A stretch of 64,000 nt of DNA. Source: Escherichia phage EC100. Location: sequence record NC_105587.1. The stretch is one strand, 5' to 3'. Numbering within the stretch: the stretch's first letter is position 1; each line of letters starts with the position of its first letter. Position numbers and translations under genes: made by a program. The notes beneath the pieces were generated by a model. The model saw only the letters and a program-made list of their open reading frames with translations. It was not told the DNA's origin and ran no database searches. Positions 1,169 through 8,777 of this stretch are shown in pieces.

Positions 1169-1270
1169 GCTTGTTTCCTCAGTTATTAATGAAAATGGTA
1201 TCTGTGGCTGGATTCGATGTCAGCAATGATAGCTGGTTGGCTACCGGTTTACTTAACTCTACACAGAATT

Positions 1271-1353
1271 TGGCGGGCCGTGTAGGATTCGAACCTACGT
1301 TGTCTTTCGACATGGATTAACAGTCCACCGCCAAACCGCTTGGCTAACGACCC
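1271..1353 (-). tRNA. tRNA with anticodon GUU (Asn-type) but a 13-nt variable arm
   Basis: Acceptor GGGTCGT/ACGGCCC, D-stem GCCA/TGGC, anticodon stem GTGGA/TCCAT, loop CTGTTAA, extra arm GTC-GAAA-GAC, T-arm GTAGG-TTCGAAT-CCTAC, CCA. 83 nt. Confidence 0.5.
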
Positions 1354-1505
1354 TGAATTTGTATTGCTGACTAGGATTTTCACCTAGACGGAGTTAGCAC
1401 CGTAGCGTGTAGCGGCATACCTCTCCAAACCGTGCCTCATCTTTCAATTACGGAGACAGTGTTCCTACGCGTGCCTGAATTGATTTAACAATTCTTTCAG
1501 CAAAT

Positions 1506-1581
1506 TGGACGACCGCATGAGATTTGAACTCACATAAAAAGGATTTGCAATCCTTCGCCTAAGCCATTCAGCCAACGGTCG
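1506..1581 (-). tRNA. tRNA-Cys (anticodon GCA)
   Basis: Acceptor CGACCGT/GCGGTCG, anticodon stem AAGGA/TCCTT with loop TTGCAAA, T-arm GTGAG-TTCAAAT-CTCAT, encoded CCA. Confidence 0.7.
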
Positions 1582-3868: not shown

Positions 3869-3946
3869 TGGTGGCTCCCCGAGGATTCGAACCTACGTAC
3901 CTTCCGGTTATGAGCCGGGTGCTCATACCATATGAGCTTGAGAACC
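3869..3946 (-). tRNA. tRNA with anticodon CAU (Met or Ile2-type)
   Basis: Acceptor GGTTCTC/GGGAGCC, D-stem GCTC/GAGC, anticodon loop CTCATAA on a CCGG stem, T-loop TTCGAAT, CCA. T-stem pairs only partially. Confidence 0.5.
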
Positions 3947-8157: not shown

Positions 8158-8229
8158 TACCGACCGTAGGATTCGAACCTACATCTTCCACCAGTTACGG
8201 CTTGATAATACCAATTATACTAGGACGGC
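8158..8229 (-). tRNA. tRNA-like element (degenerate, possible pseudo-tRNA)
   Basis: T-arm GTAGG-TTCGAAT-CCTAC identical to the one in the 1271-1353 tRNA, acceptor stem with one mismatch, no clean anticodon stem, no CCA. Confidence 0.25.
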
Positions 8230-8342: not shown

Positions 8343-8777
8343 TTAGAAAAATTCGCTAGCAATCAAAGCAGTTGTTTTACCATCATAACGCCCTGGAAAC
8401 TCTGCCTTAATGGTTTTCATTAAGAGAGCTTTGGTAATACCCGGGTTTAATTTAACCAGTTCTGCAAAATACTCACGAATCTGAACTTCAGTTAACTGCT
8501 CTAGAGCATATTCATACTCTAGACCTGCTAACAAGTCGAGATATTCAGCATCTGGAGTATATTCGATATTTGCTTTTGCAGCAGAAGTCATTGTATTCTC
8601 AATTGCTTTGAACTGTGATTTAATCCAGTTAGTAAATTCTAGTCTAGATACGCAATCTTTATCAATTCGTTGTAGGTCGCCTAAAATCGTGCTAAGGTGC
8701 TTGACTGACGCAGTATCACCGTGTTTGCGAGCTTTTTCAATTAATTCTCGCAGTACACGAATCATATTCGTACCCAT
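8343..8777 (-). CDS. hypothetical protein (144 aa)
   Basis: ATG start overlapping the stop of an upstream small ORF in a TAATG arrangement. Confidence 0.5.
   Translation of the reverse strand: MGTNMIRVLRELIEKARKHGDTASVKHLSTILGDLQRIDKDCVSRLEFTNWIKSQFKAIENTMTSAAKANIEYTPDAEYLDLLAGLEYEYALEQLTEVQIREYFAELVKLNPGITKALLMKTIKAEFPGRYDGKTTALIASEFF

Follow-up and report, generated by a model that had tools for sequence, protein, structure and literature searches.

A tRNA-Asn with a class II-type extra arm in Escherichia phage EC100 and its viral relatives

The tRNA gene at positions 1271 to 1353 of a 64,000 nucleotide (nt) stretch of DNA from Escherichia phage EC100 (sequence record NC_105587.1; this whole stretch is called the window here, and positions are counted from its first letter) specifies a tRNA with the asparagine (Asn) anticodon GUU and a long, hairpin-forming extra arm. 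A preliminary description of the gene had remarked that long arms are usually confined to leucine (Leu), serine (Ser), tyrosine (Tyr) and selenocysteine (Sec) tRNAs, a point that we accept, and had gone on to call the identity of the tRNA ambiguous. We report here that the window tRNA is very likely a genuine Asn decoder, and that it belongs to a widespread viral class of tRNA-Asn with class II (five-arm) shape that has apparently gone undescribed so far. EC100, the window phage, is a T5-like Tequintavirus.

The gene, its fold and its distribution

ARAGORN calls a tRNA-Asn (gtt) on the minus strand over exactly this span, and the Rfam covariance model RF00005 matches it from 1274 to 1353 with 59.0 bits (gathering score 29, E = 3e-10). 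Both programs place GUU at positions 34-36, within the loop CUGUUAA. The ARAGORN run that the preliminary description had proposed thus returned the tRNA at its exact coordinates, and the worry expressed there that a covariance model might put the anticodon elsewhere was not borne out. The RNA can be divided as GGGUCGU-UA-GCCA-AGCGGUU-UGGC-G-GUGGA-CUGUUAA-UCCAU-GUCGAAAGACAAC-GUAGG-UUCGAAU-CCUAC-ACGGCCC-G-CCA, and its minimum free energy structure predicted by RNAfold is a five-arm cloverleaf (-30.5 kcal/mol, z = -2.3) with an acceptor stem of 7 base pairs (bp), a D arm, a 5-bp anticodon stem, a 3-bp extra stem and a 5-bp T arm. The features expected of an RF00005 tRNA, namely G18G19, U33 in a 7-nt anticodon loop and the T-loop sequence UUCGA, are all present. 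Because ARAGORN, Rfam and RNAfold agree, any other fold or anticodon position for 1271-1353 was rejected.

The variable region is 13 nt long and contains a stem-loop, which places the tRNA in class II (variable region of at least 10 nt) and not among standard class I bodies with their 4-5 nt variable loops. The Rfam alignment treats ucgaaagaca as an insertion at this place, and sequence, RNAfold structure and insertion together bear out the GTC-GAAA-GAC hairpin that had been noted in the preliminary description, as the three programs do its Asn-type anticodon and clean arms; the sequence itself encodes G73 and the CCA. The acceptor and T stems have the 7/5 layout, not the 8/4, 9/3 or 8/5 layouts of allo-tRNAs and tRNA-Sec.

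Is the extra hairpin a chance feature of this sequence? Among 94 distinct long-arm tRNA-Asn sequences (below) the variable region is 11-19 nt long with a stem of mostly 3-4 bp, and 61 have GNRA loops (GAAA in 45), with a few UUCG loops besides. Compared with shuffled sequences, these arms have stems of at least 4 bp more often (50% versus 16%), far more GNRA loops (56% versus 1.2%) and a lower mean arm energy (-3.4 versus -0.55 kcal/mol). In a loop-anchored alignment of the arms, which favours the inner(most) pairs since it is anchored on the predicted hairpins, 79% of the pairing cells are paired versus 45% in shuffled sequences, and double-sided changes number 110 versus 43.5. Among phage relatives the two sides of the stem change in a compensatory way (GUC/GAC, GUUC/GAAC, AUCC/GGAU, GUCA/UGAC) and the loop is constant as GAAA or GCAA. 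The extra hairpin is not due to chance, and the arm is under selection.

Identical or near-identical 83-nt genes are present in 206 phage records (at least 99% identity), where they are mostly annotated as tRNA-Asn, and at an identity of at least 90% the long-arm allele is found in ~280 T5-like records, with ~134 such records carrying the class I allele of the T5 type. The labels given to the long-arm gene are inconsistent from record to record (tRNA-Asn, tRNA-Asx, "hypothetical protein" or none). Beyond these close relatives, long-arm tRNA-Asn genes of 82-88 nt occur in other Demerecviridae, in Straboviridae and in Phapecoctavirus; versions of 85-88 nt are carried by Proteus phage PM135 and Epseptimavirus, and the T4-like carriers include Karamvirus CC31 and PG7, Winklervirus CBH8 and Roskildevirus Cronus. 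Pattern scans of IMG/VR, whose counts are rough, found at least 94 distinct long-arm sequences with the anticodon arm GGACUGUUAAUCC and at least 83 further ones with other anticodon stems. In an IMG/VR scan that allowed any variable-loop length, 15 of the 120 loci among the viral matches listed were of the long-arm type; many of the short-arm matches in that scan probably represent host tRNA genes located where prophages end.

When the long-arm pattern was run on 185,579 bacterial and archaeal genomes, it matched 72 times; only 17 of these matches are long tRNA-Asn genes, and 11 of the 17 belong to arrays with 7-36 tRNA genes in 8 kb. A blastn search of 5,426 complete E. coli genomes found no match at E <= 1e-5. 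With 17 occurrences in 185,579 cellular genomes and none in E. coli, the class is in essence confined to viruses or to tRNA arrays. No long-arm phage tRNA-Asn was found described in the full-text literature searched, which included reviews of tRNA identity and of non-canonical tRNAs; the older sequencing papers on T5 and BF23, in subscription journals, lie outside that scope.

Two kinds of cellular locus seen in these scans deserve separate mention. Actinomycete chromosomes (Verrucosispora and Micromonospora; L136, L138, L147, L193) have arrays of 23-36 tRNA genes within 8 kb in which the sole Asn tRNA is an 89-90-nt long-arm form with U1-A72. In Azoarcus sp. L1K30 (L200 114-200), the variable loop of an ordinary chromosomal tRNA-Asn has an apparent 11-nt tandem duplication (ccgtaggtcat ccgtaggtc), and its "long arm" is spurious, there being no real hairpin.

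Amino acid identity

With which amino acid would such a tRNA be charged? The determinants of the E. coli asparaginyl-tRNA synthetase (AsnRS) are G34, U35, U36 and G73 (PMC9976931), and the window tRNA has all four. G73 is in addition an antideterminant for the leucyl and tyrosyl enzymes, LeuRS and TyrRS (PMC9976931); it is present in 160 of 179 long-arm tRNA-Asn sequences, and A73 in 124 of 127 Leu and 89 of 94 Tyr tRNAs from the same phage loci. With G73 and GUU, the window tRNA lacks the combination of A73 and a Tyr or Leu anticodon that marks tRNA-Tyr and tRNA-Leu. It has G1-C72, whereas 59 of 94 long-arm relatives have U1-A72 as in bacterial tRNA-Asn. U1-A72 belongs to the GatCAB transamidation route; E. 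coli has AsnRS, so its absence does not matter there.

The E. coli tRNA-Asn(GUU) (asnT/U/V/W), whose reference sequence we found in 5,425 of the 5,426 E. coli genomes, shares with the window tRNA the loop CUGUUAA, G73, CCA, G18G19 and the T-loop UUCGA, and its anticodon stem is the same except for pair 28:42 (U-A in the window, C-G in E. coli). It differs in its 5-nt variable loop AUGUC, its U1-A72 and its acceptor, D and T stems, and the two tRNAs give no blastn match at E <= 1e-5. Other class I isotypes with long arms in the same phages keep their own discriminators (U73 in Cys, A73 in Met, Ile and Lys, G73 in Trp), so identity appears to be set by the anticodon and not by the arm; this argues that an anticodon-defined identity travels with the tRNA rather than with its arm. 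Nematode nev-tRNAs and bacterial allo-tRNAs also combine a long arm with an anticodon other than those of Leu, Ser or Tyr (PMC3333845, PMC5389517, PMC7609411), but they are charged according to their bodies (with Leu, Ser or Ala), whereas the identity set of the window tRNA fits its own anticodon; the allo-tRNAs moreover have 8/4 or 9/3 acceptor/T stems, not 7/5.

Judged by these sequence features, the window tRNA is a predicted AsnRS substrate, and we are rather confident that it decodes Asn. The ambiguity seen in the preliminary description therefore largely disappears, since the full Asn set is present and G73 does not fit LeuRS or TyrRS.

The only serious rival on charging is the seryl enzyme, SerRS, since this enzyme does not read the anticodon and since G73 and G2-C71 are both present in the window tRNA. 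SerRS might charge the tRNA, alone or beside AsnRS, so that AAY codons would partly be read as Ser. The elements that it uses are the long arm, G73 and G2-C71 (PMC7609411, PMC9976931); G1-C72, G2-C71, G3-C70, C11-G24 and G73 are all found in the window tRNA, and there are close relatives with tRNA-Ser-like D arms. The arm itself, however, is not that of a tRNA-Ser: in phage tRNA-Ser the arm has a median length of 18 nt (about 16-20 nt is the expected range), a stem of 4-7 bp and 1 unpaired 3' nt, against 13 nt, 3 bp and 3 unpaired 3' nt in the window tRNA. Many members of the family also depart from the Ser pattern in the acceptor stem, having U1-A72 (above) or, in 40 of 94 long-arm relatives, C2-G71, a pair that is listed as a SerRS antideterminant (PMC9976931). 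Conversion of Tyr to Ser identity in vitro is said, by Himeno and Asahara, to have needed a lengthening of the arm. In addition, Asn codons make up 55 per 1000 codons (5.5%) in the long open reading frames (ORFs) of the window phage, with AAU at 35.6 per 1000, so systematic misreading would be ruinous and hardly viable, and T5 itself uses an ordinary class I tRNA-Asn at the corresponding locus. We consider charging by SerRS most improbable, and the mischarging or recoding tRNA raised in the preliminary description is, on this comparison of sequences, unlikely.

Origin and possible role of the extra arm

The arm most resembles that of tRNA-Tyr. The number of unpaired nt on the 3' side of the variable stem is 1 in phage tRNA-Ser, 2 in tRNA-Leu, 3 in tRNA-Tyr and 3-4 in long-arm tRNA-Asn, and the whole arm layout of the latter (0-1 unpaired 5' nt, a 3-4 bp stem and 3-4 unpaired 3' nt) is of the tRNA-Tyr type. 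Bacterial tRNA-Tyr(GUA) shares with the window tRNA G34, U35, the T loop UUCGAAU, a 13-nt variable region, a 3-bp stem and 3 unpaired 3' nt, and in E. coli tRNA-Tyr (sequence verified) the stem is even the same GUC/GAC; tRNA-Tyr has A36 and A73 where the window tRNA has U36 and G73, so TyrRS should reject the latter. Anticodon stems that also occur in phage tRNA-Tyr are found in 47% of long-arm versus 22% of short-arm tRNA-Asn (in a sample not biased by anticodon stem), and D arms like those of Leu, Ser or Tyr tRNAs in 41% versus 2%. Two substitutions, A36U and A73G, lead from the Tyr to the Asn identity set, and a Tyr-like scaffold is therefore the most economical origin; a single one, C35U, makes a GUU tRNA of tRNA-Ser(GCU), in which G73 is in place from the start. 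A class II scaffold is therefore a plausible ancestor, and it may have been tRNA-Tyr-like, which we propose tentatively and at somewhat less than even odds.

When the claim that the window tRNA is a genuine Asn-decoding member of the viral class II-shaped class is weighed jointly with a claim about the role of its arm, we consider the whole probable. The role would be as follows: The gene would be transcribed from the minus strand within the T5-type tRNA gene region with its CCA encoded, and the tRNA, charged by the host AsnRS through G34, U35, U36 and G73, would read AAC and AAU. The arm would keep the phage supply of tRNA-Asn structurally unlike that of the host, so that tRNases needing the face made up of anticodon stem, D-loop and variable pocket would cut it poorly and AsnRS would still accept it. 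Candidate enzymes are the TOPRIM, stem-nicking nucleases PARIS AriB and P2 OLD, or other tRNA nucleases of the host or of competitors. Such an anti-nuclease role is the possibility that we favour, and we put it forward with considerable reserve.

Several facts about tRNA-cutting defences are consistent with it. PARIS AriB cuts E. coli tRNA-Asn(GUU) in the anticodon stem between positions 40 and 41, in the authors' AlphaFold 3 model the AriB dimer lies over the anticodon stem and D-loop positions 16-17, and the class I tRNA-Asn of T5 experimentally helps to rescue cells and phages from PARIS (PMC12409363). In that model the predicted contact region adjoins the place where the extra arm would emerge. 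Colicin E5 is also reported to cut E. coli tRNA-Asn(GUU) (PMC1635277).

A long-arm tRNA of another isotype has been put to use in E. coli. Phage Bas33 (HildyBeyeler) carries two long-arm tRNAs, a tRNA-Asn of 86 nt and a tRNA-Thr(UGU) of 87 nt (L408 16775-16861). The latter, found also in SP01, differs in isotype but has the same layout with a 15-nt variable region (A, GGA-GUAA-UCC, CGUU); the GGA-GUAA-UCC arm recurs in tRNA-Thr(UGU) at two further loci (L023, L110), and T5 and the window phage have a class I form of 72-75 nt. According to a 2026 preprint, expression of Bas33 tRNA-Thr(UGU) in E. coli strongly rescues phages from the P2 OLD tRNase and does so better than the class I tRNA-Thr of T5. 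A long-arm class I isotype from T5-like phages thus works in E. coli. The result is compatible with nuclease escape but does not identify the arm as the cause; neither the PARIS paper nor the OLD preprint mentions the arm (each has 0 occurrences of the word "variable"). Bas33 is also rescued by the addition of T5 tRNA-Lys(UUU) alone (PMC12409363), and the part of the Bas33 tRNA region that was examined contains neither an annotated nor a called tRNA-Lys(UUU).

How far do the data resist this interpretation? The AriB site U36-A-A-U-C|C41 is the same in the window tRNA as in the host, the first difference lying at position 42, and substitutions at or near the cleavage site, such as would speak for an anti-defence tRNA, are not present; any resistance would therefore need another source, namely the shape of the tRNA or its changed D loop (C16). 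The PARIS authors regard cleavage of the tRNA-Asn of Bas34, another T5 relative, as possible, and Bas34's own tRNA-Asn, whether of the long-arm or of the class I type, did not suffice (PMC12409363). Long arms are found as well on isotypes with no known link to a nuclease, such as Met, Cys and Trp. Class IIb synthetases approach their tRNAs from the variable-loop side, and an extra arm could in principle hinder AsnRS. With regard to ancestry, the nearest neighbours of the D arms are Ser tRNAs more often than Tyr tRNAs, and comparisons within genomes gave no sign that the tRNA was recently duplicated from one for Tyr, Ser or Leu (best identities 0.6-0.75, top matches mixed). All of these points, and the roughness of the viral counts, weigh against the reading given above.

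The alternative that survives best is that the tRNA is a genuine Asn decoder whose arm has no present adaptive role and is an entrenched legacy of a class II ancestor with which the core has co-adapted. The ancestor could have been tRNA-Tyr (GUA to GUU plus A73G) or tRNA-Ser (GCU to GUU with G73 in place). The tRNA-Tyr-like junction, the anticodon stems shared with tRNA-Tyr and the frequent class II-type D arms would all follow, and the long-arm anticodons of other isotypes (Met CAU, Ile GAU/UAU, Thr UGU, Cys GCA, Asp GUC, His GUG) are likewise one substitution away from those of Leu, Ser or Tyr; class I and long-arm alleles are, moreover, freely interchanged within Tequintavirus. A mere legacy is harder to reconcile with the loops, however: in the phage junction comparison 67% of long-arm tRNA-Asn but 5% of tRNA-Tyr have GNRA loops, which suggests separate selection on the hairpin. 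It also does not account for the near absence of the class from cellular genomes, to which the same mutational path is open, and no recent donor tRNA is detectable. We regard this alternative as possible but rather doubtful, and as about as likely as an anti-nuclease role of the arm.

A non-translational RNA, i.e. a decoy or sponge for a tRNA nuclease or other tRNA-binding factor, or else a decaying pseudo-tRNA, is quite improbable. In its anticodon stem-loop the window tRNA hardly differs from the host tRNA that AriB cuts, the PARIS authors do raise competition by overexpressed viral tRNAs (PMC12409363), and T5-type regions hold stable tRNA-like RNAs of unknown function. But the acceptor stem, G73, CCA, T loop and G18G19 are intact and conserved across very divergent phages, so that charging and decoding features speak against the decoy considered in the preliminary description. 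Furthermore, the long-arm form is the only Asn tRNA in the examined 8-kb stretch of several cellular arrays (7-36 tRNA genes), and against OLD a phage tRNA-Thr supplemented the tRNA pool without inhibiting the nuclease (same preprint).

To return to nuclease escape, the idea can be widened, at the price of being less likely still. A short GNRA-capped arm could be a general counter-defence device that phages put on class I isoacceptors, leaving synthetases that read the anticodon unaffected. Such a device would graft a tRNA-Tyr-type arm, most commonly onto Asn and also onto Thr(UGU), Cys, Met, Ile and Lys tRNAs, would alter the tRNA on the face that tRNases such as PARIS AriB and OLD use when they nick the stem or depend on the variable pocket, and would be a structural escape route distinct from the anticodon-loop point mutations that have been described.

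Independently of these interpretations, many IMG/VR loci (e.g., L015, L057, L062, L063, L097, L153) have long-arm phage tRNAs of further isotypes, namely Cys(GCA), Thr(UGU), Met(CAU), Ile(GAU), Trp(CCA), Lys(UUU), Glu, Asp and His, each with the discriminator that is usual for its isotype, and the share of other isotypes with long arms is about 2% in short-arm-Asn loci versus about 7% in long-arm-Asn loci. Many phage arrays contain a tRNA-Ile(UAU) of 91-96 nt with an extra region of 20-26 nt (L027, L030, L032, L034, L066, L092, L153, L215, L226, L266); this insert has a recurring CCAGAUUAG- or AGAUAAU-like motif, and it is longer than, and different from, the short GNRA hairpins.

Genomic setting and significance

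The features of the locus are collected in Table 1.

Table 1. Coordinates of the long-arm tRNA-Asn gene, its parts and its neighbours in the window
Feature	Coordinates	Strand	Basis
tRNA-Asn(GUU), 83 nt, class II (five-arm), G73-CCA encoded	1271..1353	-	ARAGORN, Rfam RF00005, RNAfold
Variable region GUCGAAAGACAAC: GUC/GAC 3-bp stem, GAAA tetraloop (GNRA), AAC unpaired before T stem	1299..1311	-	Sequence, fold, Rfam insertion
Anticodon arm GUGGA-CUGUUAA-UCCAU	1312..1328	-	Alignment with E. coli tRNA-Asn
Spacer, 152 nt, tRNA-Cys to tRNA-Asn	1354..1505	-	Alignment of window phage versus T5
tRNA-Cys(GCA), upstream neighbour, same strand, T5-type tRNA gene region	1506..1581	-	ARAGORN, Rfam
Conserved stretch just 3' of tRNA-Asn CCA, 73 nt; T5 annotation "RNA3, putative tRNA-like RNA"	1196..1268	-	

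T5 has its class I tRNA-Asn at the same position between identical flanks, and shares with the window tRNA the anticodon, G73 and CCA; it differs in its length of 78 nt, its 5-nt variable loop, a diverged and partly mismatched stem (GCAUC/GUUGA), U32 and the linked ORF T5.069. Pairwise alignment shows that the segment that differs from T5 consists of the spacer and most of the tRNA-Asn gene. In T5 this place is taken by T5.069 and the class I tRNA-Asn (L001 1017-1589), with T5.069 overlapping the 5' end of the tRNA gene. T5.069 encodes a 172 amino acid protein with Pfam T5orf172 and MUG113 domains, and its counterpart in Bas31 has been called a putative homing endonuclease. T5-like phages thus have one of two alternative cassettes at this site, and the identical flanks up to sharp boundaries suggest endonuclease-driven allele replacement. 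A T5 GenBank note states that an anticodon change gives no amber suppressor; it concerns the class I allele, and we did not use it for the long-arm allele. Bas32 (IrisVonRoten, L409 7805-7887) has a long-arm tRNA-Asn whose only differences from that of the window lie in the anticodon arm: pair 28:42 is C-G, the E. coli form, and position 32 in the loop is U, not C, so that this loop position is variable among alleles that otherwise agree.

The spacer matches no Rfam family, and its folding signal is weak (z = -1.9). The conserved stretch 3' of the gene is nearly identical in T5 and the window phage, and neither ARAGORN nor Rfam calls a tRNA in it. Elsewhere on the minus strand of the window, Rfam finds tRNAs at 3872-3946 and 8158-8229 that ARAGORN misses, and ARAGORN calls a tRNA-Tyr at 2184-2271 that is below the Rfam gathering score. 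A 144 amino acid ORF at 8343-8777 (minus strand), which T5 also has (T5.081), matches PHROG 1460, "tRNA amidotransferase" (E = 5e-38), and has no sequence match in Pfam, NCBIfam or PDB; its single-sequence AlphaFold model is all-helical and, with a predicted local distance difference test score (pLDDT) of 59.7, too weak for a fold search. It was considered as a partner of the long-arm tRNA-Asn and dropped, since the label is unsupported and T5, with its class I allele, has the ORF too.

Textbooks limit long arms to the Leu, Ser, Tyr (in bacteria) and Sec tRNAs, and here a tRNA of a class I isotype, Asn, takes the class II form. This form accounts for about 1 in 8 of the viral tRNA-Asn matches listed and is found in T5-like, T4-like, phapecocta-like and many uncultivated phages; annotation pipelines name its genes inconsistently. 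If AsnRS does charge the long-arm tRNA, then long arms are tolerated by a class IIb synthetase, and tRNA engineering could profit from this. And if the arm protects from tRNA-cutting defences, it would represent a shape-based escape route in the tRNA arms race between phages and their hosts, and would explain why some phage tRNA alleles, such as the Bas33 tRNA-Thr, outperform others in rescue.

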